Virus record (IMG/VR): IMGVR_UViG_3300029419_000188
Length of the DNA: 64,000 bases
Strand: one strand, 5' to 3'
Origin: a virus
The translations under genes were made by a program, and so were the position numbers. Positions 1,007 through 61,202 of this stretch are shown piece after piece (positions within the stretch are counted from its first letter, which is position 1; the number at the start of each line of letters is the position of its first letter). Under the pieces are notes generated by a model, which saw nothing but the letters and a program-made list of their open reading frames with translations, was not told the DNA's origin and did not search any database.

Positions 1007-1678
1007 TACTAAATATTGTAATAATAAACACTGCAAACCCAGTACTGTAGTTGCAAATCCATTCCCTTCTATAGTAACAAGAACAATAGACAAGCTATTG
1101 TTCTATTTTGCGTTTTATGATTTCATTCTTCTATTAAGTATGATAAATTTATATAAAATCAGAAAGTAATAATATATAAAATACATCATACGTTTCGGTA
1201 ATTTTGATTGATAAAAATTATAAATAGAAATTTGTAAAAAAAATGATAAACAATCAAAATACTCCAAAGAACAGATTTAAAACAAGTAATGATTATAGAT
1301 GTTTTGATAAATAAAATATAATTGAAAATATATAAAATAAAATAGTTAACAAAACAAATTAATATATTAAAAACTGTTCTTTGTGATAGATACATCATTT
1401 ATGATAAGTTCTGTGTTCTTTAATAATTTCTTACCGATAAAAAAGAAGAATGATAATAGATGTACTGTTATCTTTAGAAACGCTATAGTATATTGAAATT
1501 ATATTTATATTGTTATATGATAAAACATTTATATATTATATTATTCAGATGAAAACTAATCAAAAATGTTTTTGTGTAATTTACACAAATTAAAATTTAT
1601 CTAAAATTTAAAAATATCTAAACACAAAAAAGTTAATACAGTTTTTTTTGTATTAGATTTCATGTTTTATAAAGTTTT

Positions 1679-1690
1679 ATCTATAATAAA
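1679..1690 (+). promoter_or_regulatory. recurrent promoter motif (T-rich)-ATCTATAATA, representative copy
   Basis: the same extended -10-like motif occurs at ~2557, 3417, 9835, 10296, 10650, 17583, 19174, 21583, 22403, 25792, 30793, 34894 and 46486, each 20-60 bp upstream of a start codon. Confidence 0.55.
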
Positions 1691-1729
1691 AAAATGAAAT
1701 TAAAAAAGAATAAAAAAGGAGGAGTTTTT

Positions 1730-2497
1730 GTGAAAGTTGGATATGCAATTTTATATAAAGATGGTACTTTAACCATTTCTAAAAAACATACTATTTTACA
1801 AAAACCAATTTATAAAGATTATGGTGAGTTTGATGATAATAAGATTCCTTGGGCATGGGGAAAAGATGATAATTGTTTTATCATTGTACAAGTATGGATA
1901 TTGAATCAAGTAAAATCTAATTGTATGAAAGAATGGTTTGCTGATTGTTACAATTTAACTACATTAATAGATTTCCAAAATTTAGATGTATCTGATTGTG
2001 AAGATTTTTCATGTTTATTTTATGATTGTCAAACCTTAAAAGATATATCATCATTAAAGGAGTGGAATGTTTCGAGTGGTAAAAGTTTTTCTAATATGTT
2101 TAGAGATTGTTACTCATTAATAGATATTTCAGCATTAGAAAATTGGAATGTATCAAATGGAAAATATTTTTCTTTCATGTTTTATCGGTGTAAATTATTA
2201 ACAAATATATCATCATTAAAAGATTGGGATGTTTCTAATGGTAGAAAATTTGATAGTATGTTTATAGCTTGCAGTTCATTGACAGACATTTCTGCTTTAG
2301 GAAATTGGCAGATGTCTAATGGTAAAGATTTTAGAACTATGTTTGGAGATTGTATTAATTTGAGAAAAATTCACTTACCAAATACTTTAAATTTTTTAAC
2401 ATTTATCATGTTTGATGGTAGTAATGAAAATTTAAAAATCCATTGGAAAAATCATGTTTATACTTATGATGATTTACTTGAATACAAAAGATTTTAA
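1730..2497 (+). CDS. DUF285 / PARCEL-repeat protein (repeated WNVSNG..F..MF..C.SL.DIS units)
   Basis: tandem ~25-aa repeats with W(D/N)VSNG and MF motifs; start reassigned to GTG 1730, 7 nt after AGGAGG (the ATG at 1694 lies within a few nt of the TATAAT box); N-terminus aligns with the pseudogene copy at 59461. Confidence 0.7.
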   Translation: MKVGYAILYKDGTLTISKKHTILQKPIYKDYGEFDDNKIPWAWGKDDNCFIIVQVWILNQVKSNCMKEWFADCYNLTTLIDFQNLDVSDCEDFSCLFYDCQTLKDISSLKEWNVSSGKSFSNMFRDCYSLIDISALENWNVSNGKYFSFMFYRCKLLTNISSLKDWDVSNGRKFDSMFIACSSLTDISALGNWQMSNGKDFRTMFGDCINLRKIHLPNTLNFLTFIMFDGSNENLKIHWKNHVYTYDDLLEYKRF

Positions 2498-2605
2498 AGA
2501 AATGCAAAAGTTAGAACATTTATTGGTATTAGTTTTTATATCTTTTAAAGTTTTCTCTATAATAAAAAAATGAAATTAAAAAAGAATAAAAAAGGAGGAG
2601 TTTTT

Positions 2606-3361
2606 GTGAAAGTTGGATATGCAATTTTATATGAAGATGGTACTTTAACCATTTCTAAAAAACATACTATTTTACAAACACCAATATATATAGATTTTGG
2701 AGAGTTTGATGATAATAAGATTCCTTGGTATCATGAAATAGAGTTTATTAAAAATGTACAAATTATTGAACCTATGAAAGTTACATGTTTGGTTTATTGG
2801 TTTTATCATTGTACAAATTTAACTACATTAATTGATTTTCAAAATCTAGATGTATCTGATTGTGAAGAATTTTCTTATTTATTTTGTGGTTGTCAATCAT
2901 TAAAGAATATTTTATCATTAAAGAATTGGAATGTTTCTAATGGAAAAGAATTTTCATTTATGTTTGCAAATTGTACATCCTTACAAGATATTTCAGCATT
3001 ATCTAATTGGAATATGTCTAATGGAGAAGAACTTTCTAATATGTTTTGTGGTTGTAATTCTCTAACAGATATTTCAGAATTACAAAATTGGGATGTATCT
3101 AATGGGAAATTCTTTTCATTTATGTTTTGTAGTTGTAAATCTTTAATTAATGTTTCAGCATTACAAAATTGGAATATGTTTAATGGAGAAACTTTTTATT
3201 ATTTGTTTTGTGATTGTTTCAATTTAAAAGAAATTCATTTACCAAATAGGTTAAATTTTTTAACATTTACCATGTTTGATGGTTGTAATGAAAATTTAAA
3301 AATTCATTGGAAAAATAAAATTTATACTTATGAGGATGTAATTGAATATAAAAAATTTTAA
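2606..3361 (+). CDS. DUF285 / PARCEL-repeat protein, tandem paralog of 1730..2497
   Basis: same promoter, leader and N-terminus as upstream copy; same repeat architecture; GTG start after AGGAGG. Confidence 0.7.
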   Translation: MKVGYAILYEDGTLTISKKHTILQTPIYIDFGEFDDNKIPWYHEIEFIKNVQIIEPMKVTCLVYWFYHCTNLTTLIDFQNLDVSDCEEFSYLFCGCQSLKNILSLKNWNVSNGKEFSFMFANCTSLQDISALSNWNMSNGEELSNMFCGCNSLTDISELQNWDVSNGKFFSFMFCSCKSLINVSALQNWNMFNGETFYYLFCDCFNLKEIHLPNRLNFLTFTMFDGCNENLKIHWKNKIYTYEDVIEYKKF

Positions 3362-3447
3362 AACATGAAAAGCTAAGACATTTTTTGTATTAGATTTTAT
3401 ATTTTATAGAGTTTTATCTATAATAAAAAAAATAAAAATTTATTATT

Positions 3448-3562
3448 TGGAAAAGAATACTCCAACTGATTCATGAACAAAACAACGTTTTGTGAATGAC
3501 AGTATTTTCATGAACAACACAATGTTTTGTGAATAATCAGTCAGAGATGAATTTTCCAACTC
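3448..3562 (+). repeat. IS200/IS605 left-end-derived repeat, copy A (contains a ~65-bp internal duplication-bearing insert)
   Basis: shares ggaaaagaatactccaactgatt ... atcagtcagagatgaattttccaactcg with the IS end at 62084-62172; near-perfect inverted copy at 6478-6562. Confidence 0.6.
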
Positions 3563-5246: not shown

Positions 5247-5556
5247 TTTTTTCTTCCTTTCAAATTTTGATGTTTATAAGTTAAATAATTAACTATAATA
5301 TTTATAGTAACATTGTAGTATAGTATAAATTAAAAAAAAATATTCAAGAAAAATGTATGAATTGGGAAAAGAAGAATAATTAATTGTGTTTAGACATTTT
5401 TAAAAACTAATCAAAAATGCGTTTATGTAATTTGCACAAAATTAAAAAAGATATATGATTTTACAGTGTTTTTTTTAATTTTTGAATAATTTTACATCTT
5501 TCATTTATAATACAAAAAATAAAATATTAAAATTTATAAAAAAAGGAGAGAAAATT

Positions 5557-6138
5557 ATGAATAAAATTTTTTGTATTATGGGTAAATCATCATCTGGAAA
5601 AGATACAATTTATAATCTTATTAAAAATCAATTTGAATTTGAGAATCTTTTGCCTGTGGTAATTTATAGCACTCGTCCAATGAGAGATGGAGAAATTCAA
5701 GATGAAACATATCATTTTATTTCTATGGACAAGATGAATGAACTTGAAAAGAATGGAGAATTAATTGAGAGAAGAAATTATGATACGGTAAATGGTATTT
5801 GGTCTTATGCAACTGGAATTAATTGTTTCAAACATAATAATAATTATCTTATTATTACAACACCAATTGCTTATAAAGAAATGCAGGATAAAATTAATGA
5901 TTTTGAACTTATACCAATCTATATTGAAGTAAATGATTATATTCGACTCACACGTGCATTAAATAGAGAAAAAATGAATGAAAACGAAAATTATGCAGAA
6001 GTGTGTAGAAGATTTTTATCTGATGCAGATGACTTTAGTGAAGAAATTCTTGAAAAATTAAAGATTACAAATAGATTTAATAATGATGAAAATTGTCTAA
6101 AAGAAGTTGAGTCATTTATAAAGCAAAATATAAATTAA
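5557..6138 (+). CDS. guanylate kinase-like nucleoside monophosphate kinase
   Basis: P-loop GKSSSGKDT and VIYSTRPMRDGEI..ETYHFIS match the Gmk pattern (G.SG.GK.T ... TTR.PR.GE..G.DYHF); start moved to the ATG with RBS AAAAAGGAGAGAAAATT. Confidence 0.65.
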   Translation: MNKIFCIMGKSSSGKDTIYNLIKNQFEFENLLPVVIYSTRPMRDGEIQDETYHFISMDKMNELEKNGELIERRNYDTVNGIWSYATGINCFKHNNNYLIITTPIAYKEMQDKINDFELIPIYIEVNDYIRLTRALNREKMNENENYAEVCRRFLSDADDFSEEILEKLKITNRFNNDENCLKEVESFIKQNIN

Positions 6139-7816: not shown

Positions 7817-7946
7817 TCCTAACAAAAGAACTTGCAAATTATATTTTGTGAGTTCTTTTGTTTAAAGGTAATATTTTGTTTATAATTATTTATAATATAT
7901 ATATCATAACTATTAAAAATAGAAAGGAGAAAAAATATTAATTAAT

Positions 7947-9755: not shown

Positions 9756-9795
9756 ACTCCACTTGATTTAAACAAGTGGAGTTTTATAACTTTAA
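9756..9795 (+). terminator. rho-independent terminator
   Basis: hairpin actccacttg-attt-aaacaagtggagt followed by TTTTAT. Confidence 0.6.
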
Positions 9796-9886
9796 TAAAA
9801 AATAAACTTTTAAGTTGTAATTATTTTTCTTGTATCTATAATAAAAAAGAACAAGTAATTAATAAGAATAAAAAGGAGAAAATTTT

Positions 9887-10117
9887 ATGAAATTTGAAAA
9901 ATATAATAAAGTATCATTTTTACATCAAAGATATATTCAACAAATACGGACGTATTTAAATTCAGTTGGAAATTTAAATGCAACAGATCTTGAATTAGAA
10001 AATGCTTGGATACAATTTTCAGAGTATTTTCTTAATCAAAATTGGATTGAAGTAACTAATATGCATCTAAAAGTCTTTGCAGAATGGTTACAAAAATATT
10101 GTGATGAAATTGAATAA
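9887..10117 (+). CDS. hypothetical small protein (NATDLELENAW family)
   Basis: promoter tctataat at 9835 and RBS; C-terminal motif shared with the C-terminus of 46978..47478; terminator hairpin at 10161-10196. Confidence 0.5.
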   Translation: MKFEKYNKVSFLHQRYIQQIRTYLNSVGNLNATDLELENAWIQFSEYFLNQNWIEVTNMHLKVFAEWLQKYCDEIE

Positions 10118-10695
10118 AAGATAAGTTTTAATGTTTTTTCTTAAAATGTTTAAAATAATTAAATTGTCTCTATTTTTATGGAGACAATTTAATTTTTGAG
10201 TCATAATGAAAAAAATAAATAGAAATTATGTTTAGATATTTTTTTTAAAAGTAGAAACTCAAACTATTTTTTTTTCATATTTTTCTTACATTTGTCTATA
10301 ATAAAGAAAAATTTCAGAAAGAATTAAAAAAGGAGAAGAAATTATAATTTATGGATGAAAAAGTATTGAGAAAATTTAAGACAAATAATTTGACAACTAT
10401 GAAAAAGATATTTCATAATTGTAGTGAATGCTACTCAAATAATAAAAGAAGAAAGTGTAAGTAAGAATGCTTCTGATTCATTAGATCTAACTTGGATTAT
10501 TAAATAAGATATTTACCATGCAAATTTGCATGGTATTTTTTTTGATAAAATTTGGAAAATGATTTAATTGTCTACACAATTTTATCTAATTTCAATTATT
10601 TCATAATATCTTAAATTTTCTTAAATTCATTATATTTGTCTCATAATTATCTATAATATAAAAAAGAATTTTAAGTTTTTAAAAGGAGAGAAATT

Positions 10696-11340
10696 ATGAA
10701 TATTAATGATTATCTTAAAATGTTTAATGAAACATTAATGAATGCAAAAATTAAAGATACAATAGATATTGATCATTTGAAATATGTTGCAATTCAAACA
10801 ATTGAAAAACAATATAAAGTAAATTATCTTACTTCTGATTCAATATCTGTTTCCTATCCATTTTCAAAATTTACAACAGATGGATATGAAATTAAATGTA
10901 AGTTAAATTTCATATTCAAAATTCAAGTAGGTAAAACAGATAAAAAGGAAATGATATCAGAAAAGAAATTTAAATATCTAAGACATTTGAACGGAATTAA
11001 ATTTGTTAAAAGTACTATTTCTTTAAAAGTTAATATATTTAAATTTGTATCTAATAAAACAATTGCTGCATCTGATTGGTCTGGAATTTCTCCAATTGAT
11101 ATTAAATTGAAAAAAAATCAAGAAATAAAAAATTTCATTGAAGAGTTAGATATTGATAAATTTAAGATTGATACAAAACAGATTGTGTGTTTTCCATTTA
11201 TATTGAAAGCTGAACATGAAAAAGATTTCGCAGATCAACATAATTATAATCAATTCATTATTGGACAGCATAAATATGATTTTGATAAAATGTATCAATA
11301 TATTTTTGATAAATTTGAAGTAAAAAAACAAATAAAATAA
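10696..11340 (+). CDS. hypothetical protein
   Basis: consensus leader TTTTAAAAGGAGAGAAATTATG; promoter tctataat at ~10650. Confidence 0.55.
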   Translation: MNINDYLKMFNETLMNAKIKDTIDIDHLKYVAIQTIEKQYKVNYLTSDSISVSYPFSKFTTDGYEIKCKLNFIFKIQVGKTDKKEMISEKKFKYLRHLNGIKFVKSTISLKVNIFKFVSNKTIAASDWSGISPIDIKLKKNQEIKNFIEELDIDKFKIDTKQIVCFPFILKAEHEKDFADQHNYNQFIIGQHKYDFDKMYQYIFDKFEVKKQIK

Positions 11341-11478
11341 TATAAGAAAAATTAATGGAAAACTTATAAAAACAGATATTGAACAACATGTAATGCAAGA
11401 AAAATATTATTTGAGAGAAGAACTTTCATATAAATTTATATAAATTTGATTAAGTTTTCAAAAGGAGAGAAATTACGA

Positions 11479-11664
11479 ATGAAAGAAATTGAAAAAAAAT
11501 TAAATAATCTTGAAGATGAGTTTGAAAAAATGAGAGAAAAAATTAAAACAAATAATTTATCAAATTGGAAGTGTTCCTGTAATTTAAATATTTCAGAAGA
11601 AGAATTAAAGAATTGGAATACAGATAATCCAGATAATATGTGGAAGATTAAATTTATGAAATAA
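11479..11664 (+). CDS. hypothetical small protein
   Basis: consensus leader AAAAGGAGAGAAATTACGAATG; start moved to the internal ATG with RBS. Confidence 0.45.
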   Translation: MKEIEKKLNNLEDEFEKMREKIKTNNLSNWKCSCNLNISEEELKNWNTDNPDNMWKIKFMK

Positions 11665-11676
11665 GGATAGAAAATT

Positions 11677-11718
11677 ATGGGAAAAGTAATATTTTGTTAT
11701 GGAGGTAGAAACAGTTAG
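11677..11718 (+). pseudogene. remnant of a thymidine kinase 5' end (MGKVIFCYGG..stop)
   Basis: matches the first ~10 codons of the TK gene at 19920 (MGKLIFCYGAMG), then an early stop. Confidence 0.4.
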
Positions 11719-12216: not shown

Positions 12217-12236
12217 AAATATCTGTTGACAATTGT
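12217..12236. promoter_or_regulatory. 14-bp palindrome TTGACAATTGTCAA-like candidate operator overlapping a -35 element, representative copy
   Basis: further copies at ~36884, 40822, 46417 and 56326, each matching the palindrome at 12-13 of 14 positions. Confidence 0.5.
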
Positions 12237-12284
12237 CTTTAAAAATGGTATTATAAATTCATAAATAAGAAAGGAAAGAAGTTT

Positions 12285-13712: not shown

Positions 13713-14162
13713 GTTTAAATTTTTCCCATATAATTTTTTGTTTATAAAGTTTTGATTACAATCCAATTGATATAAATCTGTATTATTATAAGGAATATAA
13801 ACCATATAATATGTTTGTCCAATACGAATTTGATTTAAATTTTCTCTTAAAGTAAAATCTTCCGTTAATTTCAAATTATCATAATTTGAAAAAAGCATTT
13901 TTTGATAAGAACGTTTATGTTTCCCACTAGTTTTATAATGTTGAATATCGATCAATTCAACTTTTTGAATATAAAAATTATTTTCTTTAATTTTTTTTAT
14001 AATTTTTTTTGTAAGAATTTAAAGCAAAATTATAAATTAACAGATATAAAATTGCAATTGTTGCTTCATGAAATGAAAATAAAAGATTATTTGTTATATT
14101 TTTTTTATAAAAATATATAATATAAAAATTAAACTTATAAGAATTTTAAAAGGAGTAAATTT

Positions 14163-14393
14163 ATGAAAAAACCAACTAAACAAGAATATGAAGAAGCTTG
14201 TAATAACATTAATTTTTGTAAAAATACAATTCGTTTAACAAGACAGAAGATTGATAAAAATTTAGATGAACTTTGTTCTTTAAAAAGTCAATTAAACACT
14301 TATCAAGAATTTTTAAATCAATCAATTAAAATCAAAGATAAATATGAAATTTATGAAGGATTAGAAAACGAGAAAAATGAAGAAAATTTGTAA
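14163..14393 (+). CDS. hypothetical small coiled-coil protein
   Basis: RBS AAAGGAGTAAATTT. Confidence 0.45.
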   Translation: MKKPTKQEYEEACNNINFCKNTIRLTRQKIDKNLDELCSLKSQLNTYQEFLNQSIKIKDKYEIYEGLENEKNEENL

Positions 14394-17256: not shown

Positions 17257-17632
17257 ATGCAGTTTCTATTTTAATCAAATGCTGAGTTAATTTCCAATGA
17301 TGTATCAATTACAGCTGCAAATAAAACTGTAAAATTTGAAAAGGTAAATACTTCAACTGCAGACAAAGAAAACACAAATACAGTCAATAATACAACAACT
17401 GATAATCAAAATAAAGTAGATAAAACACAAACAAGCGATAATAATCTTGTTGTAATTATTCAATATTCATTAATATTTATTTTCTGTATTGAATTAGTTT
17501 GATATTTCATAAAGAAAAAAAATTAATCTTTTAAGAAGAATGCAAAAAATTGCATTCTTCTTTTATATTTTTTATATTTTTATCTATAATATAAAAAATA
17601 ATATTTTTGAATTTTAAAAGGAGAGAAAAATT

Positions 17633-18136
17633 ATGAAATATTTAAGCAAATTAACAGATGCAGAACTTACGGAAATTTACAAATCTTTTATGACTTCAAC
17701 TGATAAATTTGTAGATTTAATAATTACAAGAGATGAGAACAGTATTACACTAGAAGGACATATTCGTATTCCAGAAGAAGATAAAGAGTATGCAGATGAA
17801 GAAGGATATTGTCTAATTGATGAAGATTATGAGATTACAGATTACAATGTAACAGCATATCATCATTCTGGAAATATGGATTATAAATTAAGAGAATATT
17901 TATATGAAAAATTTGGAGTTGAATATGCAAAAGATTTCTTATTTATGAATAATAATTTTACTGGGCATTATGATGTAAATGGAAAACCAATCTTCCTCGG
18001 AGATACTATTATTGAAGGTTGTAATGGACTTATCAGTAGTGTTGAATTTAATAAAGAACGTGGTGCATATTGGTTAAAAGGACTTGGTGATGGTTATTCA
18101 ATTGAAAATTCATCTATTGAATGGGAAAAAATTTGA
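17633..18136 (+). CDS. hypothetical protein
   Basis: promoter tctataat at 17583; consensus leader. Confidence 0.5.
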   Translation: MKYLSKLTDAELTEIYKSFMTSTDKFVDLIITRDENSITLEGHIRIPEEDKEYADEEGYCLIDEDYEITDYNVTAYHHSGNMDYKLREYLYEKFGVEYAKDFLFMNNNFTGHYDVNGKPIFLGDTIIEGCNGLISSVEFNKERGAYWLKGLGDGYSIENSSIEWEKI

Positions 18137-19021: not shown

Positions 19022-19219
19022 ACTTAAAAGAACAACTGACAATTTGAATTAATTAAAAAAAATATGTACAAATAAAATAAATTTGTACATATTTTTTATT
19101 ATTTGGAAAAGAAATTGATATAAATATTTTTTTACTATTCTTTTAATTTATCTTCATATTTTTCTTTTTTTTATCTATAATATAAAAATTGAAAATCAAG
19201 TTTTTGATAGGAGAAAATT

Positions 19220-19903
19220 ATGAAAATAGAGATACAAGAAGTATTAGAAACTCTTCAATCAGATATTACTGAAAAAGAAAATCAAATTAATTTAATCAAA
19301 AATATTGATTGGACAAAATCTGTAACAGAAGAAGAATGGCATCAAATTTGTGAAACTTTATTACGAACTTCAGATTCATTATGTGATCTCTTAAAAAATA
19401 CTTTTCCAAATGCAACAGATATTAAACTTGGAATGAATTATGTAAATTTTAATTTATATGGATTTAAATGTTTACTTCCAACATCTATTTATGAAGAAAT
19501 ACTTGTTGATATGAGTTGGAATAAAAATCTAAAAAAACCAACACTTGAAAACACAATGAATCAATTTGAGAGAAATATGCGAGAATATTTCAAGTCAGTA
19601 GATTCTCATGAATCTTGGTTAAAATTATTTGATTTAAGATTTTTACAGTTTAAACATTATAAAAAATGGATTAAATTCATTTTATGGTTTGGGAAATATA
19701 AATGGAAAAATGTTCATCGAGAAAAATGGGAAGAACAATTCAAAAATACAGAAGAAAGAGTTACTGAAAAATTAAATTTGTATAAAAAAGAAAAAAGAGA
19801 AATTGAAGAAAAAAATAAAATACTTCATGAGAAATTGTTACCAGAATTATATCAATTTACAAAAAATGTTTATGATAAAGATTACAAAAAAGAAATTATT
19901 TAA
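19220..19903 (+). CDS. hypothetical protein, paralog family B
   Basis: promoter tctataat at 19174; paralog of 8809..9495. Confidence 0.6.
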   Translation: MKIEIQEVLETLQSDITEKENQINLIKNIDWTKSVTEEEWHQICETLLRTSDSLCDLLKNTFPNATDIKLGMNYVNFNLYGFKCLLPTSIYEEILVDMSWNKNLKKPTLENTMNQFERNMREYFKSVDSHESWLKLFDLRFLQFKHYKKWIKFILWFGKYKWKNVHREKWEEQFKNTEERVTEKLNLYKKEKREIEEKNKILHEKLLPELYQFTKNVYDKDYKKEII

Positions 19904-19919
19904 AAAAAGGAGAGAAAAT

Positions 19920-21347: not shown

Positions 21348-21617
21348 GTATAATTATTAACTAAATATATACTTATAATAAGATTACTTGGCAAATGCTA
21401 AGTAATCTTATATTTTGTCTAAAAAGAATTTAGTTTCATTTGTCAAAATATCACAATTTTCATATCATTATTGTATCTGATTGTTTCATTGAACTACAAA
21501 TTTGAATTACATTTGTCTAATATTTTAGACTTTATTTTTTTTTAATAAATACATTTTTTTATTATATTTTTTATTTATTTATCTATAATAATAAAAATAA
21601 AATTGAGAGGTGACACT

Positions 21618-22367: not shown

Positions 22368-22435
22368 TTATGCAAATCTAAGTAATAATAAATTTATAAA
22401 AATCTATAATAAAAAAAAAGAAAAGGAGAAAAAAC

Positions 22436-34842: not shown

Positions 34843-34958
34843 ACAATTATATCATGAAATTCATTAATATTTTTTAAATTTTTTTATATTTTTCAGATAC
34901 TCATCTATAATAAATTATCAAGTAAAATTATAAAAAATTTAAAAAGGAGGATTTTTGG

Positions 34959-42037: not shown

Positions 42038-42352
42038 AAAAGAAGGGAAATATTATGAGAATTTCGTATAGAAAGTGAATTAAACAGCTTAAAGGTCAGA
42101 GTTTTAACTGAACAATTTTCAGATGGTCGACCTAAAATAATACACTTAAAGTTTAATATAGATGATATTTTGAAATTGGAATGTTAACTCTGTGTAGAAG
42201 AACAGAATTGATATCTATAATTAATTATTGAAATTTTGTTTTGTAATTTATACACTCCTTTTATTTTTTTCTTAAATTTTTTTTATATTTTTCTCAAAAT
42301 TATATATAATTCATTAAAAAAATTAAAAAATATAAAAAAGGAGAAAATTTTT

Positions 42353-42668: not shown

Positions 42669-43262
42669 ATGAAAAAAATTATTTTTGATGTAGATGATAC
42701 ATTATGGTCCTTAAATAAGAAAGTTTGTACGAATCTTAATATTCCATATGAAAAAATTATTACATTTTCTGTGTATGAAAATCCATTATTAACAAAAAAT
42801 GAAAAGAAAAAAATGGTAAATGCATATGGTAATCCTGAACTATTTAAGGATATTTTGTGGTTTGATGGAATTAAAAGAATTAATCAATTAAATGATGTTG
42901 ATATTTATATTAATTCAAACAGTGTCAATGAAGAATGTACAAAATGTAAATATAAACAATTGACTTCAATTCTAAAGATACCAAGTAATCATATTTTAAT
43001 TAATACAATTGGTATTAAAAATGAAAATGTAACAAAAAAGGATATTGATAAAGATACGTATATTTTTGTAGATGATTCAGTACACAATGTTTCATTATCC
43101 AATGCAAAGTACAACATTATGATAAAAACACCATGGAATCAATCTGCATCAGCAAAACAATTAATCAAAAATAAAAATGTTATTTTTTGTGAAAATTTAA
43201 ATGAAGTAATTGATGTCATTGAACATTTAATTTCTGAAGAAAATGTGAAATCTATTAGTTAA
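42669..43262 (+). CDS. HAD-superfamily 5'(3')-deoxyribonucleotidase-like protein (NT5C/YorS-type)
   Basis: N-terminal KKIIFDVDDTLW (DxDxT motif I) and later IFVDDS (motif IV-like); ~197 aa, as in phage YorS-type deoxyribonucleotidases; terminator at 43267-43300. Confidence 0.55.
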   Translation: MKKIIFDVDDTLWSLNKKVCTNLNIPYEKIITFSVYENPLLTKNEKKKMVNAYGNPELFKDILWFDGIKRINQLNDVDIYINSNSVNEECTKCKYKQLTSILKIPSNHILINTIGIKNENVTKKDIDKDTYIFVDDSVHNVSLSNAKYNIMIKTPWNQSASAKQLIKNKNVIFCENLNEVIDVIEHLISEENVKSIS

Positions 43263-43392
43263 GAGTATCCGCCATTTATAAATAAAGTGGCGGATTTTTT
43301 ATTATTTTATAAAATTTAAAGTTATATTTTTTATATATTTATTTATAATGTATTATTGAAAATAATTTAAGTTTTTAAAAGGAGGAAATTTC

Positions 43393-44962: not shown

Positions 44963-44977
44963 AAAGGAGAGAAAATT

Positions 44978-46377: not shown

Positions 46378-46532
46378 ACTATCACTCCTTTATTATATTT
46401 ATATTGTATCATATTTACAGACAATTGTCAAAAATATTGTAAAATTTAAAACAATATAAAAAAATAAGAATATTTTTTATTTAAGAATCTATAATAAAGA
46501 AAAAAAATGTAAGTTTTGAAAAGGAGAGAATT

Positions 46533-46823
46533 ATGAAAAAAATGAATTTTATAAATGGAGTTTTAATTGCACTAATTATTTTTGTTTCAGTTATTGGAAT
46601 TGGTGGAGTTATCTATCAACGAGTTGTATTGGATCAAAAAGAAACAGCTACAATAAGTAATACTGAAGTTGATACTACAAATATTAATTCCAATACGTCA
46701 AATGTTATTGACAATGGAAATGGTACACATACACATACTTATATAGATGAAAATGGTGAAACAGTAAAAGAAACACATAATGATACAGATCATTTAACAT
46801 CAGAACAGAATGAAACTGAATAA
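46533..46823 (+). CDS. small membrane-anchored protein (N-terminal TM, Thr/Asn-rich tail)
   Basis: promoter tctataat at 46486; consensus leader. Confidence 0.45.
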   Translation: MKKMNFINGVLIALIIFVSVIGIGGVIYQRVVLDQKETATISNTEVDTTNINSNTSNVIDNGNGTHTHTYIDENGETVKETHNDTDHLTSEQNETE

Positions 46824-46977
46824 AAAATAAATCTAAAATATTCCTTGAAAAAATGTAAATTACTAGAAAGACAAAAACATTTTCGTTTTTTGGAATAAAT
46901 TAAAACTTACTATTTATAATAACTATAGAATTTATACAAAAACAAATTTATTCAAGTTTTTAAAAGGAGAAAAAATT

Positions 46978-47478
46978 ATGAAAAAACGAGAGATTTATAC
47001 AATTAATAATAATCATGGTATTATTATTATTATAAATGAAAAACAATATCTTTATATGTCTAGTTTTATTAGATCTGTTAGATCTGAATCATATTCATTA
47101 ACAGAAACAGATATAAATATGTTGTTTTCATCATTAAAACGGTATATATCTTATATGCCATTGAAAAAGCTATCAAGATTAACTGTTGAAGATTACAAAT
47201 ATATTGGAATGATTGATGAAAAATTATTTTTATCAGTATTTCCAGAATCAAAATATCAAAAATGTGAAACTTCAAATATTATAATACATAATGCAAATTA
47301 TTTAGAATTACAAAGATTACGAAATTTTTTGGAAGAGAATGGAATATTAAATGCTACAGATGAAGATCTTGAAAATGCATGGATCAAATTTTCAAATGAA
47401 AAAATCTTTACAAATTGGGCGGATATGGATGGGTATAATTTGAAAAGATTTTTACAGTGTAGCCACAGATATTTATAA
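46978..47478 (+). CDS. hypothetical protein (C-terminus shares the NATDEDLENAW motif with 9887..10117)
   Basis: consensus leader; terminator at 47488-47521 with the same hairpin arms as the one at 35498. Confidence 0.5.
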   Translation: MKKREIYTINNNHGIIIIINEKQYLYMSSFIRSVRSESYSLTETDINMLFSSLKRYISYMPLKKLSRLTVEDYKYIGMIDEKLFLSVFPESKYQKCETSNIIIHNANYLELQRLRNFLEENGILNATDEDLENAWIKFSNEKIFTNWADMDGYNLKRFLQCSHRYL

Positions 47479-48518: not shown

Positions 48519-50321
48519 CTATATATTTTTTTCCATTTTGGAATATATGATATAAATCAAGAAACATAAAGAACCAGCAATAATAAACCCAATTGCTTTT
48601 TGTATTGTATTTTGTAGTGAAAGATCACATAATATTAATTTAAAACAACTAAAAAATGTTAATCCAAGAGAGTATATTCTAAACATTTTTAGTTTAAATT
48701 TAAATCCAATACAAACAAAAATAATTGCTAAGAAAATTAATGTTAGCGTAATTATCAAGTTTAAAGTATTTATCAAATCTAATACATACCATATATATGC
48801 TGTATATTTTAATCCAATCCAAACAATTCCATAATTTTTATTTAAACATTCTTTCACAGAAACTGTTAATAAAGCAAAACCTATCAATATATAATACAGT
48901 AATTTTATAGTTGATGGATGATAAGCACTCAATGAAATTGAGACAATAATTAATAAATACACATTGAAAATTCTTCTTAAAATTATCAAATATTTTTCTT
49001 CTTTATCAGTAAACAAAAATACATATACTTGAATACCTAATCCCATCAAAAGAGGAATCGCAAAATAAGAATTTAAATTCATATAGAATATCCATAATAT
49101 AAGTAATATGTATGTTGTTAACAAATCTTTCTTTTGATTTACATATGTAATAATCAATATTGATATTGGAACAATTGAAAAATAAATTGGATAATAACTC
49201 ATTATAAAAGTGAACATTCCAATTATTATAAACTTAGTCCATTTATAAACATTTTCATTTGTTAAATGTTCTCTAACTGCAAAGAAAATATAAATGATAG
49301 ATATAATAATAAAAGTTATAAATGGATAGAGTGTTTTTTCATTCAAAAGTAATAGAGAAGATATATTCGCGAATAAAGAATAACAGAGAAAAATATATGG
49401 AATGTTTTGTGTAAATTTCTTTTCTCTTATTCTTATAAACAGTATTAATGATATTGCTGTAATTATAATCTCTATTAAATTTGAAATATCATTTATTTCT
49501 TTTGTTGTTAATCCATGAGTAAAAATATAAGGTATTGTTAGATTAATAATTGTTAGAGATTGACAAAATGCAGCAATAATGTTTACTGAATCTTCTTCAT
49601 TTTTAAAAGAAAATGAATAAATAATAAAAGGAATAATAATTAAAACAGTTAATTTACTATTAATAGAAAGATATAAAATTGTTGCAATAATCAGCATAAA
49701 ACTATTCACATATTTTTTCCATTTTGTATCAATTCTAAAAATATTTGAAAGAAGAATGAAAGAGAAACAACTCAATAATTCTTTTTTTATATAAATTCCG
49801 AATATAGACACAATAGTTAAACCTAATATACCTGTAAGAGAAAATGTCTCATCTTTTTTTTGTTCGTAAAACAGTGCAAATAGCCACAACAAAATTAATA
49901 TATAAAAAACGATCTCAGGAATTAATTTAAAATATCCATATGTGGTAAAAAATGATAAATAAATTGACATATAACCACAGTGTTGAATTACTTGATAATT
50001 TTTCTTTTTACCCAAAAGTAATAATCCAATACTGATAAGATACATAATTACTACTTTTATAACAACTGAATCCATTGCAATCACAAGAAAAGATATTCCA
50101 CACAAAATCAAACAAGCAGCAATAATTCCAATAATTTTTCCAATATTTTTTTCAATATTTTCAAAAGTAAATGATTTTTTCTTTTGTTTTTTCAGTAGTT
50201 GTGTCTCATATGTTGAATGTTTAAATTCTTTTACGGTTTTAGACTGTTCTTTTTCTTCCAACATTTTTTCTAATTTTAGAACTCTTTGTTCTAATTCTTC
50301 AATTCTTTTTTCTGTATCCAT
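48519..50321 (-). CDS. large polytopic integral membrane protein with an N-terminal cytoplasmic coiled coil
   Basis: RBS GAAGGGGATTT; MDTEKRIEELEQRVLKLEKMLEEKEQ followed by >12 hydrophobic helices; terminator hairpin at 48487-48522. Confidence 0.5.
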   Translation of the reverse strand: MDTEKRIEELEQRVLKLEKMLEEKEQSKTVKEFKHSTYETQLLKKQKKKSFTFENIEKNIGKIIGIIAACLILCGISFLVIAMDSVVIKVVIMYLISIGLLLLGKKKNYQVIQHCGYMSIYLSFFTTYGYFKLIPEIVFYILILLWLFALFYEQKKDETFSLTGILGLTIVSIFGIYIKKELLSCFSFILLSNIFRIDTKWKKYVNSFMLIIATILYLSINSKLTVLIIIPFIIYSFSFKNEEDSVNIIAAFCQSLTIINLTIPYIFTHGLTTKEINDISNLIEIIITAISLILFIRIREKKFTQNIPYIFLCYSLFANISSLLLLNEKTLYPFITFIIISIIYIFFAVREHLTNENVYKWTKFIIIGMFTFIMSYYPIYFSIVPISILIITYVNQKKDLLTTYILLILWIFYMNLNSYFAIPLLMGLGIQVYVFLFTDKEEKYLIILRRIFNVYLLIIVSISLSAYHPSTIKLLYYILIGFALLTVSVKECLNKNYGIVWIGLKYTAYIWYVLDLINTLNLIITLTLIFLAIIFVCIGFKFKLKMFRIYSLGLTFFSCFKLILCDLSLQNTIQKAIGFIIAGSLCFLIYIIYSKMEKNI

Positions 50322-50496
50322 AAATCCCCTTCTTTCTTTTCTTTTATTATAGATAAAAGGAGAAGATTTATAAGAAAAAAATGATTCATTTTTTCTTATA
50401 AAAAATTTATTTTTTTAATTATGAATAATTTTTTAAAAAATATTTATAATGATGATAACTAAAAATAAAAATAAGTTTTGAAAAGGAGAGAAAAAC

Positions 50497-51063
50497 ATGA
50501 AATATTTAGCAGATGATGGAAAAGTTTTTGAAAAAGAAAATGATTGTAGAGAATATGAGGAATCCTTAAAAAAGAAAAAGAATGAAGAAATTCTAGAAGA
50601 AATGAAAGAATTAGATTTAAGAATTTGGAGAACATTTCATCCAGAAGATATAAGTACTAATGAACCATCTTTAGTACTTGCTCCAATTTGGTTAAAAACA
50701 GACATTTGTTCCATTTTTATTGATTTTGAAAATAGTAAAGAAACTATTCTTGAAATGATTCATGATTCAAAATATGGAAGAGAAATTCTTGATAAATATT
50801 TAAAATGGTCAGATATTGAAAAAAATGTTGAAGTAAGAAAAGATTTTACTACTGCATTTAAAAATGTAAAATATGGAACTGATCTATCTAAGATTCTAGA
50901 TTATGCTTTTAACAAACGTGATTTAAAAAATCTTGCAAGTTTACATAAGAAAAACAAATATAGAAGAAAAATTGAAGAATTATTATCAGATTGTAATTTT
51001 CATCATGTAATTGCAGATTTTCATGATAAAAATTATGATAAATATTTGAAAGAAGAAAGATAA
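50497..51063 (+). CDS. hypothetical protein (a decayed paralog fragment lies at 60415-60525)
   Basis: consensus leader TTTTGAAAAGGAGAGAAAAACATG. Confidence 0.5.
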   Translation: MKYLADDGKVFEKENDCREYEESLKKKKNEEILEEMKELDLRIWRTFHPEDISTNEPSLVLAPIWLKTDICSIFIDFENSKETILEMIHDSKYGREILDKYLKWSDIEKNVEVRKDFTTAFKNVKYGTDLSKILDYAFNKRDLKNLASLHKKNKYRRKIEELLSDCNFHHVIADFHDKNYDKYLKEER

Positions 51064-51099
51064 TATAATTTGTTTAAGTTTTTAAAAGGAGAAAAAAAT

Positions 51100-52143: not shown

Positions 52144-52299
52144 TATTTAAAATAGACATGGTGTAATTGCCATGTCTATTTTATGTGTATCATATTTTAC
52201 TTTATTTTTTTCAAATATTTTTTCTTAACTCATTCTTGATATTGTAATATTTCTCAAACAATTATTTATAATTTAGAAAAAAATGAATGAGGTGTAAAC

Positions 52300-53913: not shown

Positions 53914-53965
53914 TTCTTGTCCTTTCTAATTTTTCTCAATTGTTTTCTTTATTATAGATTTTTTT

Positions 53966-54418
53966 TTGTGTATTATTCAGTTTTTGTCTATTATTTTTAC
54001 ATATTCACTTGTGGAAAAGATAGATTTAAAAACAACAAAAAGGAAAAGTACCTATCAAAATAAGAAATTAAATAAAATCACACATACAATTCCATACGCA
54101 AGATATTTAGAAATGGTAAATTATCTTGGTTATAAATTTGAATTTTTGATTATTAAAGTTCATCTTGCCTATACTAGTCAAATTGGAAAAATAAAATATC
54201 AAGACAAAATGAAAATTCCATCTCATATTGCTGCTAGTTATGTAATTGCAAGACGTGGAATGAAATATAGTCATAATGAACATATTCCAAAAGAATATAA
54301 ACATTTCATTCAAGATATAAAAGAAAAACATTATTGGAGTAAATTTAATAAAATTTACAAGGAACTAGAAAACAAAAAAAGGCAACTAAAAAACATAAAA
54401 CTAAACAACAAACCATAA
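53966..54418 (+). pseudogene. truncated, degenerate TnpB-like C-terminal fragment
   Basis: LAYTSQ (RuvC-II ..YTSQ-like) followed directly by HIAASYVIARRG (RuvC-III D.D.NAA.NI.RRG-like, with D replaced by H); no zinc finger or N-terminal domains. Confidence 0.4.
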
Positions 54419-55731: not shown

Positions 55732-56461
55732 CTTTATCTCTCCTATTTTTTTCTTTCATTATAGATGAAATTGTTTTTTTTATTCCTATTTTTTCATTCC
55801 TCCTCGGTTTCTCTTTCCCATAGAGGTCCTTCTACACAAACATTGGGAATGGTTTCAACCATTCCCTATGTCCTCACTTCTCCCTTTCAACAAAAGCGAC
55901 TATCTGTTAGAAGTCCTTTCCCCATTTTTTCAAACATCTTTTCTCGAATCTATCCAATTCTTCTCCTTTCTTCCATTTTTCAAAAATTCTTTCCTTCTCT
56001 TTCTTATTTTCTTCTTCAATCTCTCTAATTCTTTTCCCTAGTAAATCAATAAGATTATCAGTCCATTCTGCCACTTCTTCTTCTGTAGTATCTAGTTCAA
56101 TTGGATTATCAAGATCAAGAACACTTGCAGACAAGTGGTTATGAACAATTCTTCTCGGCACTAAAGTACCGAGGATGCTTGTTCAATAATCCTTAAAGTG
56201 TATAAATACCTTCATTTCAAATAGACATTCCTATTTCATAAATTCTTTCTATTTCATGGGACTGTTTTGTTTTGCATCAACAAAGTGTACAAAAATTTCT
56301 GTCAAAATGAAAGAAAATTTGTGACAATTGTCAATAGACAAGTGAAACCACAAATGATATGATGTGTAAATACATTAAGTGAAAGGAGAAAATTTGCTGA
56401 TGAAAACAAAAAAATTGGATGATGTAAGAAAAATGAATGAAAAATTTTGGAGGGAAAATAG

Positions 56462-57578: not shown

Positions 57579-58131
57579 AAGGATGTCTACTCTACTTTGT
57601 AACTGTACCAAGAGAGAAAAAAATTCAACAATCACTTTTTCTAGATGTACTGTCTTTGGTAAAAGAAGAAAAACAGAGAAAAAAGATTGAAGAATATGTG
57701 AAAGATAAATATACACCATTGAAAACAGAAGAGAACTCCTAACAGCTAGGAGTTCTCTATTTATTCCATTTCTTTCAAAAAAAGAACCCCCATTTCTAGG
57801 AGTTCTCTTTGATTTTACATCTATGACTCTATGTCTACAGTCATAGGTATAATGAGTGGCTGTTTTAGCATCTCTACAACATATCCTAATGCGTCGCAGT
57901 ACATGCTGATTATTTCATCTTTGGAAAAGGTCAGCCCATCCATTTCTGTTGTTGCGTTTTTAAACATTTCTTCCATTTTCTTCTCCTTCTCCTGACTTTC
58001 ACAGGCACAACTGATTGGCACAATCAGTTGTGGTATTATTCCTACCTTTTTGTTTCAACTGCTGTATTATAGATATGTATACAAAATATATTCCATTTTT
58101 TTTAATTTTTTCATTTTTTTCACAATTTCTC

Positions 58132-59250: not shown

Positions 59251-59460
59251 AATATACTCCTTTCTATAAACAATTCTTTAAATTGTATATACTTATAATA
59301 CAATTATATCATATACTCTGAAAATTAACATCTCTAGCCATAAGTACTAGTTAGTGCATGAATATATAATAAATGACATAAAAAACTACTATAATGAGAT
59401 ATAAAATTTATATCAAAACATATAATTAAAGAAAAAAAGGAGCTATTAAAGAAAAAAATT

Positions 59461-60069
59461 ATGATTGTTGGATATGCAGTACTTTATAAAGATGGAACTC
59501 TTGTAATTTCAAAAAAACATAGTATTTTATCAAAAAAAGTGAGAAAAGATTATGGTCAATTTGAAGATACAAATGTGTCATGGAAAAATGAAATAAAAAA
59601 AATAGAAAAGGTTCATATTTTAGATTAAATAAAATCAAATTATCTAAAAAAATGGTTTGAAGATTGTATCAATTTAACTACATTGATTGATTTTCAAAAT
59701 TTAGATACTTCTGATTGTACCAATTTTTCAAGAATGTTTACTTATTGTAAATCCTTACAAAATATAAATGAATTACAAAATTGGAATGTTTCCAATGGTA
59801 CTAATTTTTCATGTATGTTTTCATTTTGTGAATCATTACAAAACATACAATCTCTTAAATTATTTAATGTGTCCAATGGTATGAATTTTATAAGTATGTT
59901 TGAGGGCTGTAAAAACATTATAACACTTGAATATCTAAAAGATTGGGATGTATCAAACGGAACATTGTTTGGAGAAATGTTTAAAGATTGTATAAATTTA
60001 ATAGATATATCTGCTGTAGATCAGTGGAATATTTCTAAAGGAAAAGATATTGAAGATATGTTTGATTGA
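59461..60069 (+). pseudogene. DUF285/PARCEL family gene with an in-frame TAA (59626-59628)
   Basis: MIVGYAVLYKDGTLVISKKH...VHILD-TAA-IKSNYLKKWFEDCINLTTLIDFQNLDTSDC... aligns with the 1730..2497 protein; the stop falls where the paralog has Gln/Asn. Confidence 0.6.
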
Positions 60070-60414
60070 TGGTGAAAAAAAGAGAAAAATATTTGAAAAA
60101 AAACACTTGAACAATGTTCAAGTGTTTTTATTTATAATGAAAAAATCTTTGTATTATCCATAAAATATAGGAAAAAAGACAATATCAGAAAAGAGAAGAA
60201 ATAGTATAAGCAATATTGATAAAATGAAAAATATTTTCATATTCAACCTTCTTTCTTTTTTTATAATACACAAATATCAAAAAAATTATAAAAAAAATGA
60301 AGAACCTGAATCAGATTATCTTGTAAAAAAATTTGATTTTTTTTGGAAATTATGAATAATTTTATAAAAAATTTTTATAATCATAAAAAGTGAAAATTAA
60401 GTTTTCAAAAGGAG

Positions 60415-60525
60415 AGAAGATTATACAATATTTAGCAGATGATGAAAAAATTTTTAAAAAAGAAAATGATTGTAGAGAATATGAGGAATCTTTAAAAAAA
60501 ATAAGAAGCGAATGGATGATATGAT
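60415..60525 (+). pseudogene. 5' fragment of a paralog of 50497..51063 with the start codon mutated (ATA)
   Basis: leader and first ~30 codons (IQYLADDEKIFKKENDCREYEESLKK) match those of 50497, but ATG is replaced by ATA and a stop follows. Confidence 0.45.
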
Positions 60526-60695
60526 TAAAATACTTATTAAATCCAAAGGTGCCATTGTGGAATGTATTATTATCAATCAAAAACATTTCCACGGATTTAA
60601 GAAAATCTTTTGTTTTGGAGATGAACAATTTGAATTGGTAAATACAGAAAACTTTTAAGAAATGCTAGAAAAGAGTGGAAAAAAGGAGAGAAATT

Positions 60696-61202
60696 ATGAA
60701 GAAATTATTGAAGAAAAGTATGTTAATGTTAAGTGGATTAAGTCTTTTGAATTTCACTACATCAAACATTGTAAAAGGAGAAGAAGTAATGAAAATAAAT
60801 GAGACAGATGTTTCAAAATTAAATGTCAATAAAGTTTCCAATAAACAGTGGAGTAAAATGTTTAATGAAAATATATATTTGAATGAAAAAGAAACAGTAG
60901 AAGAAGTAATTGAAAAAATTAATGAAAATATTAAGAATGTTGATAACATTACTTCATTATTAGTAATTGCAGGGAAAAATGATTACACAAGAAAGAATCA
61001 AATATTTCCATTGAAAGAGATTTCATTAAAATATAATGATTCTAATGAGATTATTGATATTGAATTTCTTTCACCAGAGATGGATACCTTAAATATCAAT
61101 GAGAAAGAATTAGATTACTTACTTGTGAATTATAAGAATGACAAAATAGATACTGTTCATTTTATCTTCAAAAATTACACAAATTACACAATATTTTTTT
61201 AA
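60696..61202 (+). CDS. secreted hypothetical protein (signal peptide)
   Basis: consensus leader; MKKLLKKSMLMLSGLSLLNFTTS; terminator at 61206-61237. Confidence 0.5.
   Translation: MKKLLKKSMLMLSGLSLLNFTTSNIVKGEEVMKINETDVSKLNVNKVSNKQWSKMFNENIYLNEKETVEEVIEKINENIKNVDNITSLLVIAGKNDYTRKNQIFPLKEISLKYNDSNEIIDIEFLSPEMDTLNINEKELDYLLVNYKNDKIDTVHFIFKNYTNYTIFF

Follow-up and report, generated by a model that had tools for sequence, protein, structure and literature searches.

A stereotyped promoter-leader module in a very AT-rich human-gut replicon and its possible part in gene exchange

Introduction

The virus record IMGVR_UViG_3300029419_000188 (IMG/VR) contributes a 64,000-nt stretch of DNA, analysed here over its whole length and referred to as the window, in which many small genes start just downstream of closely similar sequences made of a promoter and a translation leader. 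This raises the question of whether these sequences are ordinary expression signals or whether they are also boundaries at which genes have been exchanged. A first-pass annotation had taken each small gene for an autonomous cassette, with a shared promoter, a near-invariant leader and, mostly, a strong terminator, and had proposed that the identical boundaries allow cassettes to be swapped. The reading that we favour, and consider reasonably probable, is that the window carries stereotyped expression modules, which have a second, weaker-supported role as gene-exchange patches.

A predicted promoter and a leader repeated in front of many genes

The exact sequence ATCTATAATA was found in 14 copies, against 1.07 ± 0.99 in dinucleotide shuffles. 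All 14 are intergenic and 12 lie at most 90 nt upstream of a start codon on the same strand, in agreement with the proposal of a promoter shared by at least 14 genes. The leader is less uniform than had been claimed. Its full form, AAGTTTTNRAWAGGAG (pattern AAGTTTT(T/G/C)(A/G)A(A/T)AGGAG), is present in 9 copies, all on the + strand, where 0.01 are expected; a 19-nt leader core occurs at 13 sites when up to three mismatches are allowed, and the 9-nt core AAAAGGAGA in 23 copies. Thus, the statement that more than 20 genes share a near-invariant leader is true solely of the Shine-Dalgarno core.

A generic promoter scanner found 186 sites against 180 in shuffles and was dropped, since it did not discriminate at 23% G+C, and motif counts and a custom model were used in its place. 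This model, R1, is a sequence-only model of 94 positions built from 27 aligned upstream regions of the window and of a related contig, L064. With filters off, R1 matched 27 sites in the window at E<0.005 (23 on the + strand and 4 on the - strand), including 8 that were not seeds; the 3' end of the model is the ATG, and 25 of the 27 sites abut a gene start, the other two being remnants. As seed members match the model by construction, the non-circular evidence comes from the non-seed sites, from the controls and from an independent repeat finder. Indeed, about 145 kb of Clostridia control loci yielded one marginal match (E=0.028), many matches were obtained in the relatives L064 and L057 and in the more distant L047/L048 lineage, and the unbiased repeat finder recovered the promoter and the leader as dispersed families (D4, D6-D9, D11, D13, D16). 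The earlier proposal of a shared promoter and leader at a constrained position before many small genes is supported. Over the 80 nt upstream of the start, module pairs show a median identity of 0.69 (0.525 when shuffled), whereas the first 90 coding nucleotides are at the random level (0.52).

The composite module is about 90 nt long and comprises, in order, an optional hairpin with a T-run, xxxATATTTTT, AT(C)TATAAT(A), the A-rich start of the predicted transcript and the leader, which ends at the ATG. The predicted -10 hexamer, TATAAT, is invariant and is preceded by T/A-rich sequence; a 17-bp spacer separates it from the -35 position, which has the form xxxATA (TTTATA, GTTATA, TGAATA) and matches TTGACA at 3-4 of 6 positions. 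The 3' end reads TTTTnAAAAGGAGAGAAATT-ATG, or (AAG)TTTTnAAAAGGAGAGAAA(A)TT-ATG, with the Shine-Dalgarno sequence AAAGGAGA placed 7-9 nt 5' of the ATG. The spacing is constrained, with the -10 box ending 37-47 nt before the ATG in 16 of 26 modules and 24-28 nt before it in 5 others. Hairpins of -8 kcal/mol or stronger end no more than 60 nt upstream of the -35 position in 11 of the 26 and are absent from the other 15. A hairpin in the leader itself was considered and rejected, because the AT-only pairings around AAGTTTT differ between copies.

A second predicted promoter type, TTGACAATTGTC-17-(TGn)TAnnAT, precedes the flotillin gene, the divergent MgsA/VWA pair and the DUF2325 gene. Its box TTGACAATTGTC, part of the palindrome TTGACAATTGTCAA, forms the -35 region of these canonical promoters and has 8 matches in the window at up to one mismatch (1.1 expected), near matches being located at 40824 and 4489; the box is also present in L064, L047 and L039. 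It may be an operator overlapping the -35 box.

Predicted terminators and transcription units

A hairpin followed by a T-run, that is, a predicted terminator, was found after 32 of the 70 genes, compared with 7.5% of random 120-nt windows. The earlier statement that most genes are followed by a strong terminator thus holds for about half of them. Terminator-like hairpins at this frequency suggest transcription units of 1-3 genes, and about 10 predicted units run from promoter to terminator with a single gene. For some 70 genes there are only 27 modules and 32 predicted terminators, and the description of every small gene as an autonomous cassette does not hold.

Mosaicism around the modules in related contigs

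The proteins of the window and their 90%-identity cluster variants matched many contigs, which vary in gene content. The backbone of L064 is 85-93% identical to the window at the nucleotide level and includes the guanylate-kinase-like, 206-aa, YunG-like, DUF4241, 104-aa and 173-aa genes as well as the thymidine kinase (TK) gene. The small genes between these backbone genes are different or shuffled, and L064 carries the same modules before other genes. Comparison of the gene at 19220 (227 aa) with TK in L064 shows 94% identity over the 80 nt upstream and 42% downstream, and the corresponding values for the gene at 17633 and the L064 gene at 16795 are 89% upstream and 19% downstream. GGAGAAAATTATG forms the left boundary of the 227-aa gene and GGAGAGAAAATATG its right one, so that both sides bear GGAGA(G)AAAAT(T)ATG, at a place where L064 has one leader and then TK directly. 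The leader found 3' of a 61-aa gene precedes an 86-aa gene in L064 and a TK remnant in the window, and in L064 the 61-aa gene is flanked on both sides by a direct repeat of about 30 nt consisting of its own 3' end and the leader. Three genes present in L201 were lost from the window at 27579; the left end of this deletion falls exactly at an ATG and a 21-codon remnant was left. The clearest presence/absence cases, these three genes and the 227-aa gene, come with neither a promoter nor a terminator of their own.

Among 44 unique junction ends recorded between relatives, 11 fall within -30 to +12 of a start codon (4.8% expected at random), 17 elsewhere in intergenic DNA (23% expected) and 8 inside coding sequence, where 70% are expected. 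About five of the intergenic junctions coincide with promoter or module 5' edges (6569, 12212 and, in three lineages, 5463, 5471 and 5479 at the edge of module 5468-5559). To judge from these alignments, the leader with its start codon appears to be a preferred and tolerated boundary for gene replacement.

Expression signals, exchange patches or both

In the reading we favour, each module would consist of a sigma-70/sigma-A-type promoter (TATAAT, invariant and directly preceded by AT(C), with a T-rich spacer of 17 bp to a weak '-35' of the form xxxATA) joined to an unstructured, U-rich leader with a near-perfect Shine-Dalgarno sequence. The modules would head units of 1-3 genes, mostly lineage-specific ORFans, in a hyperplastic accessory region. 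As suggested by the consensus, the modules would first of all have each unit transcribed and translated strongly and in an insulated way; a second role, with weaker support, would be to serve as short homology patches or landing pads, with genes being replaced, inserted or lost at the leader or start codon.

It is also possible, although we find it doubtful, that the modules are expression signals and nothing else, kept alike by selection for strong sigma-A promoters and ribosome-binding sites in an AT-rich genome together with local duplications, and that junctions are seen at gene boundaries because only such recombinants survive. Several findings weigh against a role in exchange or fit this view. 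No alignment column is invariant outside the -10 box, the -35 ATA, the Shine-Dalgarno sequence and the start codon, and the conserved positions are mostly those that any strong promoter and ribosome-binding site needs at 23% G+C. Junction ends are enriched at stop codons (8 of 44; 2.5% expected) as much as at starts, the enrichment at leaders is modest under an intergenic-only null (~31% vs ~16%), and selection against broken genes could give the same clustering. Orthologous modules are 85-94% identical compared with a median of about 69% for paralogous ones, which indicates that modules have mostly been inherited in place and not actively homogenised. Moreover, all recent events that could be resolved, between strains at least 98% identical, have causes other than the modules (illegitimate deletions, paralog-mediated recombination and changes mediated by insertion sequences, IS), with no module-to-module exchange among them. 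L002 lacks 42246-45376 through a 3.1-kb deletion with 4-bp microhomology and a right end inside the DUF2325 gene; L037 lacks about 10.4 kb, the crossover lying inside the paralogous coding sequences 8809-9495 and 19220-19903; L201 and L202 lack 34878-35035 (158 bp), an ATTAAT-microhomology deletion that destroyed a module; the window itself lost the three genes at 27579; and IS200/IS605 events account for 31457-33815 in the window, a TnpB insertion in L200, an IscB insertion in L206 and a 905-bp insertion in L059. Nevertheless, the 16-nt AAGTTTTNRAWAGGAG leader, with its 9 copies against 0.01, and the conserved spacer AGAAAATT exceed what a ribosome-binding site needs. A view limited to expression also fits poorly with two orthologous modules that are 89-94% conserved before unrelated genes, with leader copies on both sides of inserted segments, and with a deletion whose left end is exactly at the ATG even though its product is a 21-codon remnant. 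The exchanges may be caused by homology between short leaders, or selection may merely preserve them. As for the earlier proposal of cassette swapping, the mosaicism around the modules, the junctions at leaders and starts and the two modules with different genes support it in part, but the equal enrichment at stops and the recent events do not.

The modules might instead form a distinct temporal or regulatory promoter class, read by an element-encoded factor (through sigma appropriation, or an activator on the ATATTTTT box), and a post-transcriptional regulator or RNase might recognise the AAGUUUU-Shine-Dalgarno leader, placing the cassette genes under coordinated control separate from that of the TTGACAATTGTC-type promoters. 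The interspersion of the two promoter types is in keeping with this, TTGACA being absent from the modules while flotillin, MgsA/VWA and DUF2325 have TTGACAATTGTC-17-(TGn)TAnnAT; so are the conservation of ATC before TATAAT and of ATATTTTT at fixed spacing, and the position of AAGTTTT, which keeps a fixed distance from the Shine-Dalgarno sequence and not from the -10 box and occurs also at the internal cistrons 11452 and 51076. However, the '-35' hexamers (TTTATA, TTCATA, GTTATA) have 3-4 of their 6 bases in common with TTGACA, and no candidate regulator was identified. The TATC of the modules is similar to the TRTG '-16' element of Gram-positive bacteria, so that no factor beyond host sigma-A might be needed, and we regard a separate regulatory class as unlikely. 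A site-specific cassette system, integron-like or acting via the tyrosine recombinase encoded at 58132-59250, or a module that is itself a transposable promoter resembling a miniature inverted-repeat transposable element, is very improbable. The presence of the recombinase, the many IS200/IS605 elements together with an omega-RNA-like element of the IscB type, and an array of small, variable and mostly co-oriented genes recall such systems. But neither IntI/attI nor an attC-like imperfect palindrome with a conserved core is found here, the 3' hairpins being simple T-run terminators that differ from one another; the cassettes carry their own promoters; the recombinase, the only one of its kind, is far from the array, about 50 kb from most modules and in an IS-rich patch; modules lack terminal inverted repeats and target duplications; and the IS insertions have distinct ends of their own. 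The integron/attC and transposable-promoter readings were rejected on account of the cassettes' own promoters and the dissimilar, simple terminator hairpins.

Comparison with known phage systems

The closest known system is the promoter-early stem-loop (PeSL) of T4-type phages (Arbiol et al. 2010; Comeau et al. 2014), which the modules match almost element for element. PeSLs consist of a stop codon, an AT-rich region, a sigma-70 promoter, a stem-loop and a Shine-Dalgarno sequence with the start codon; they are enriched beside ORFans in hyperplastic regions, and a role in gene swapping has been proposed for them in T4-type phages (PMC2839356; PMC4122927). In both cases a composite intergenic motif of about 100 nt runs from a stop through an AT-rich stretch and a sigma-70-type promoter (predicted here) to a Shine-Dalgarno sequence and start codon (25 of the 27 R1 sites here abut a start), with a potentially terminating stem-loop that part of the copies here possess; dispersed copies stand by ORFans in variable regions (27 in 64 kb here), and differences between related genomes map beside the motifs, here with 11 of 44 junction ends at a leader or start and 8 of 44 at a stop. 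A further feature of PeSLs is the excision of mini-circles with a hybrid motif. Unlike PeSLs, the modules have a weak '-35' (xxxATA in place of a consensus one), a hairpin that is confined to 11 of 26 copies and precedes the promoter instead of lying inside it, and a far more stereotyped translation leader (AAGTTTTnAAAAGGAGAGAAATT); recent indels are not mediated by them, and no T4 core gene or other phage structural gene was detected in the 64 kb. Membership in the PeSL class is not established, given the lack of a demonstrated T4-like phage, the weak -35, a hairpin in under half of the copies and an activity that is predicted only.

We consider quite unlikely a bolder reading, in which a widespread, never-binned gut replicon of 23% G+C (a giant phage or episome) would have its accessory genome organised by mobile promoter-leader cassettes, the invariant AAGUUUU-Shine-Dalgarno leader being recognised by an element-encoded RNA-level regulator or nuclease for coordinated control, and the module as a whole serving also as the recombination site for cassette exchange. 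This would amount, with equally little probability in our view, to a Gram-positive-type, leader-centred counterpart of PeSL shuffling.

Other systems share fewer features. Morons, reportedly described in lambdoid and other phages by Juhala and by Hendrix, are accessory single genes with their own promoter and terminator lying between genes that are adjacent in relatives, and about 10 single-gene units from promoter to terminator are predicted here. Unlike the modules, morons have no common repeated promoter-leader sequence, and several of the inserted genes in the window (e.g. the 227-aa gene at 19220) use a resident module and have no promoter or terminator of their own. The host-takeover genes of SPO1 and the terminal-repeat early genes of Twort-like phages are short genes in small operons with very strong early sigma-A promoters, unusually strong Shine-Dalgarno sequences and terminators. 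The host-takeover module of Bacillus phage SPO1 is said to have been presented by Stewart et al. in Virology in 1998. Here, too, many short genes form small predicted operons that start with a module promoter and a strong Shine-Dalgarno sequence and end in terminators; the SPO1/Twort genes lie near a genome end, and in our case assemblies stop at window positions 1-1450 and genes read inward. However, homology to SPO1 genes is lacking and a terminus is suggested by contig ends alone.

If the modules guide exchange, the "mobile regulatory cassette" mechanism, until now described in no other group than the T4-type phages of Gram-negative hosts, would extend to an unrelated, very AT-rich gut element. 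If they are merely expression signals, the 94-position model can still be used to locate gene starts, decayed cassettes and units of transcription in this lineage, which has nearly no database matches. In either case the modules offer compact promoter and ribosome-site parts, predicted to be strong from their consensus.

Gene content and nature of the replicon

The G+C content is 22-26% across the window and about 23% for the replicon. About 70 genes were called, with coding and intergenic shares of 72% and 28%, and nearly all genes from 1.6 to 52 kb are on the + strand, reading inward. Genetic code 4 (TGA = tryptophan) was rejected in favour of the standard code: it made the open reading frames (ORFs) barely longer, and the stops are 56 TAA, 9 TAG and 5 TGA. 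The window has no detectable tRNA, and no Rfam family scored above threshold in it. Pfam and PHROG matches are few, most genes downstream of modules having neither. Matched genes encode three DUF285/BspA-like proteins, a DUF6465 protein, a guanylate-kinase-like protein, a TK fused to a Panacea domain, a dCMP deaminase, a YunG-like protein, a DUF4241 protein, flotillin, MgsA/RarA, a VWA(CoxE) protein with a MoxR-type AAA ATPase, an RlaP nucleotidyltransferase, a SIMPL protein, the tyrosine recombinase and several IS200/IS605 products (TnpA, TnpB).

Exact copies of the proteins were found solely in metagenome assemblies (JGI 3300029373, ENA, Logan), in contigs of up to 97 kb, and the best match of MgsA in a scan of one genome per GTDB species had 44% identity. 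Megablast of the window against phage and plasmid collections gave no match, scans of IMG/VR with MgsA and with TK found no relative, and a tblastn search of phages with ten concatenated window proteins gave no record, cultured phages included, that shared more than one protein. A 17-mer scan of IMG/VR returned 119 loci with 1-2 matches apiece, none with more than one composite module. The composite pattern itself retrieved 10 short human-gut contigs from metagenomes, at about 2x coverage, which add LigA, HPF, an HD hydrolase, NlpC/P60 and an AIM24-like protein, a set that is not decisive for phage versus cell. L115, a viral contig from the same JGI sample, proved unrelated. Most likely, the element is an unbinned, uncultured and very AT-rich replicon of the human gut, either a large phage or another mobile element. 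This assignment is tentative, as the window encodes large membrane proteins and the Pfam/PHROG searches detected no phage structural or replication hallmark, T4 core gene or cellular housekeeping operon among its proteins.

Every assembly found stops between window positions 351 and 1450, beside a non-coding repeat region. Positions 1-1500 are non-coding, with a GC-richer, structured-looking stretch at about 1-245 that ends in a terminator and, at about 540-1010, a repeat array of cctatcagaat/taatctgatagga inverted pairs (family D12). This region might represent the end of the genome, an origin of replication or a long repeat.

Distribution of the modules

The modules, leader-only sites and contrasting promoters of the window are listed in Table 1.

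Table 1. Promoter-leader modules and related sites in the window (start of the gene in brackets; R1, match to the 94-position model, with its bit score where given).
Site	Position	Strand	R1	Remarks
Module before DUF285 gene (1730)	1641..1727	+	32.9 bits	Exact ATCTATAATA at 1679
Module before DUF285 paralog (2606)	2517..2603	+	29.6 bits	Non-seed; 93% identical to 1730 module
Orphan module, geneless	3379..3455	+	25.1 bits	Non-seed; ATCTATAATA at 3416; runs into IS end at ~3460
Module before guanylate-kinase-like gene (5557)	5468..5559	+	29.7 bits	ATTTATAATA variant
Module before 168-aa gene (7947)	7853..7938	+	19.0 bits	Non-seed; directly 3' of hairpin 7826-7857 (-13.3 kcal/mol)
Module before 76-aa gene (9887)	9795..9888	+	R1	ATCTATAATA; single-gene unit; terminator 10158-10193
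Module before 37-aa ORF (10351)	10265..10345	+	27.6 bits	Non-seed; ORF of 59 aa in L064; terminator 10514-10535
Module before 214-aa gene (10696)	10612..10698	+	44.6 bits	Full AAGTTTTTAAAAGGAGAGAAATTATG leader
Leader only before 61-aa gene (11479)	11452..11481	+		AAGTTTTCAAAAGGAG...ATG; L064 junction at 11462
Leader and 13-codon TK remnant	11661..11718	+		Followed by IS-flank remnant 11701-12170
Module before 76-aa gene (14163)	14075..14165	+	33.1 bits	ATATATAATA variant
Leader-only site before DUF4241 gene (14449)	14401-14451	+	12.0 bits	
Module before 167-aa gene (17633)	17533..17635	+	44.9 bits	Abutted by terminator hairpin 17533-17562; L064 ortholog drives different gene
Module before 227-aa gene (19220)	19134..19222	+	45.8 bits	Drives TK directly in L064
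Second leader copy, before TK	19895..19922	+		AAAAAGGAGAGAAAATATG; right bound of inserted 227-aa gene
Promoter part of module before 249-aa gene (21618)	21548..21604	+	R1	ATCTATAATA; short-leader class
Module before 532-aa gene (22436)	22368..22432	+	R1	ATCTATAATA; short-leader class; terminator 24034-24069
Module before 348-aa gene (25842)	25752..25844	+	38.7 bits	ATCTATAATA
Module before 196-aa gene (30846)	30724..30842	+	R1	Abutted by terminator hairpin 30724-30760
Module before methyltransferase-like gene (33947)	33859..33949	+	29.9 bits	
Module before 115-aa gene (34959)	34865..34956	+	R1	ATCTATAATA; deleted in L201 and L202
Module before IGGIY-family gene (42353)	42263..42351	+	32.4 bits	
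Module before 193-aa gene (43393)	43260..43391	+	R1	Full leader; abutted by terminator hairpin 43260-43301
Module before 96-aa gene (46533)	46457..46535	+	R1	ATCTATAATA; full leader
Weak module before 166-aa gene (46978)	46874..46980	+	R1, E=0.014	Full leader; terminator 47490-47516
Module before 600-aa membrane-protein gene (50321)	50319..50386	-	33.7 bits	ATCTATAATA; short-leader class
Module before 188-aa gene (50497)	50403..50499	+	R1	Full leader
Leader-only site serving gene after the 188-aa gene	51076-51102	+		
Promoter part of module before 66-aa gene (52300)	52239..52284	+	21.9 bits	Non-seed
Module before IGGIY-family gene (53913)	53920..53998	-	R1	ATCTATAATA
Module before 236-aa gene (55731)	55736..55797	-	R1	Short-leader class
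Promoter before 51-aa ORF (57976)	58039..58112	-	R1	ATCTATAATA; 89-nt leader containing hairpin
Module and pseudogenised 50497-gene paralog	60335..60564	+	R1	Leader present; ATG -> ATA; repeat families D14, D18
Contrast promoter before flotillin gene	12226..12258	+		TTGACAATTGTC-17-TATTAT; same box at 36892, 46420 and 56323 (-)

Insertion sequences and gene remnants

Fresh structural change in this lineage is mostly due to IS200/IS605 (TnpB/IscB) elements and to deletions at microhomologies. Elements of this family occupy 15400-17260, 31457-33815 and 62173-64000 in the window, in addition to the solo IS-flank remnant at 11701-12170; the copy with TnpA and TnpB at 31457-33815 is absent from L201 and L202, and one TnpB copy has ctcatgactaaagtcacgagt at both ends. 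The IscB insertion of L206 lies 11 codons into the homolog of the gene at 10696. A match to HEARO, the IscB-associated omega RNA, was found at 3781-4006 on the + strand (80.7 bits, E=1e-14, just below the gathering score of 83), with no IscB gene adjacent to it. It is located inside a segment of about 3 kb bounded by inverted repeats of about 85 nt (3460-3545 and 6475-6555) that resemble IS200/IS605 ends (ctccaactgattcatgaac...), and the orphan promoter at 3416 runs into this IS end. Candidate IscB genes are present in the relatives L047 (432 aa, with RRXRR and HNH Pfam matches) and L206 (506 aa, RRXRR).

The three kinds of gene remnants that had been cited in favour of swapping all exist. The TK start at 11677 reads MGKVIFCYGGRNS and then a stop, and the sequence on its 3' side, from 11701, matches the flank of the TnpB element in L200 at 94-96% identity, intact TK being located upstream of flotillin in the L047 lineage. 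In the 50497-like start at 60399-60564, ATA has replaced the ATG start codon, and DUF285 fragments lie at 59459-60069 and 44014-44217. The remnants cited have causes other than swapping, the TK remnant being IS-associated and the remnant at 60415 a point-mutated pseudogene.

Other gene families and repeats

The commonest cassette type is the IGGIY paralog family, whose proteins of about 100 aa start with M(x)LKIGGIY and end in ...IDGYLGELTEENL. Its members lie at 18150-18464, 34519-34842, 42353-42655 and 53419-53913(-) in the window and, in relatives, at 4067-4348 in L039, at 5279 and 16795 in L064 and in L196; homologs were found only in this lineage, and the family has no Pfam domain. The TK at 19920-21161 is 413 aa long owing to a fused C-terminal SocA/Panacea antitoxin-like domain, and in relatives TK stands alone (274-292 aa). 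Beside the VWA/MoxR pair, the gene of a 732-aa protein that matched no family contains three tandem repeats of about 243 nt (81 aa) at 38597-39312 (D5, D17) and is split into ORFs of 454 and 260 aa in L200.

Two promoters of the same form as those of the modules, GTTATATT-N14-TATCTATAATATAAAAA...AAGGAGGA, were found in an unrelated viral contig (IMG/VR UViG 2690315891_000001, 27-31% G+C), at L075 8943-9023 (30.7 bits with R1) and at about 2020-2100 of L095. This hints that the promoter shape is in wider use, with little added evidence, as it was the 17-mer itself that led to L075 and L095.

A second conserved leader, C(C/T)GTGAAAGTC(A/G)GGAGAAGGAG, is located at 57976-58060 on the - strand, before the 51-aa ORF 57821-57976. 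The same leader precedes the 162-aa gene of the 905-bp insertion (L059 784-1688), which is richer in G+C and is shared by L059 and L060 at position 60564 of the window, and it may belong to a different mobile gene family. Finally, a 62-nt intergenic repeat (AAATGTTC.TAAA.TATCAAAAAATATCGA..., D19), unrelated to the promoter module, occurs at 26965-27026 and 47570-47631 in copies that are 76% identical.

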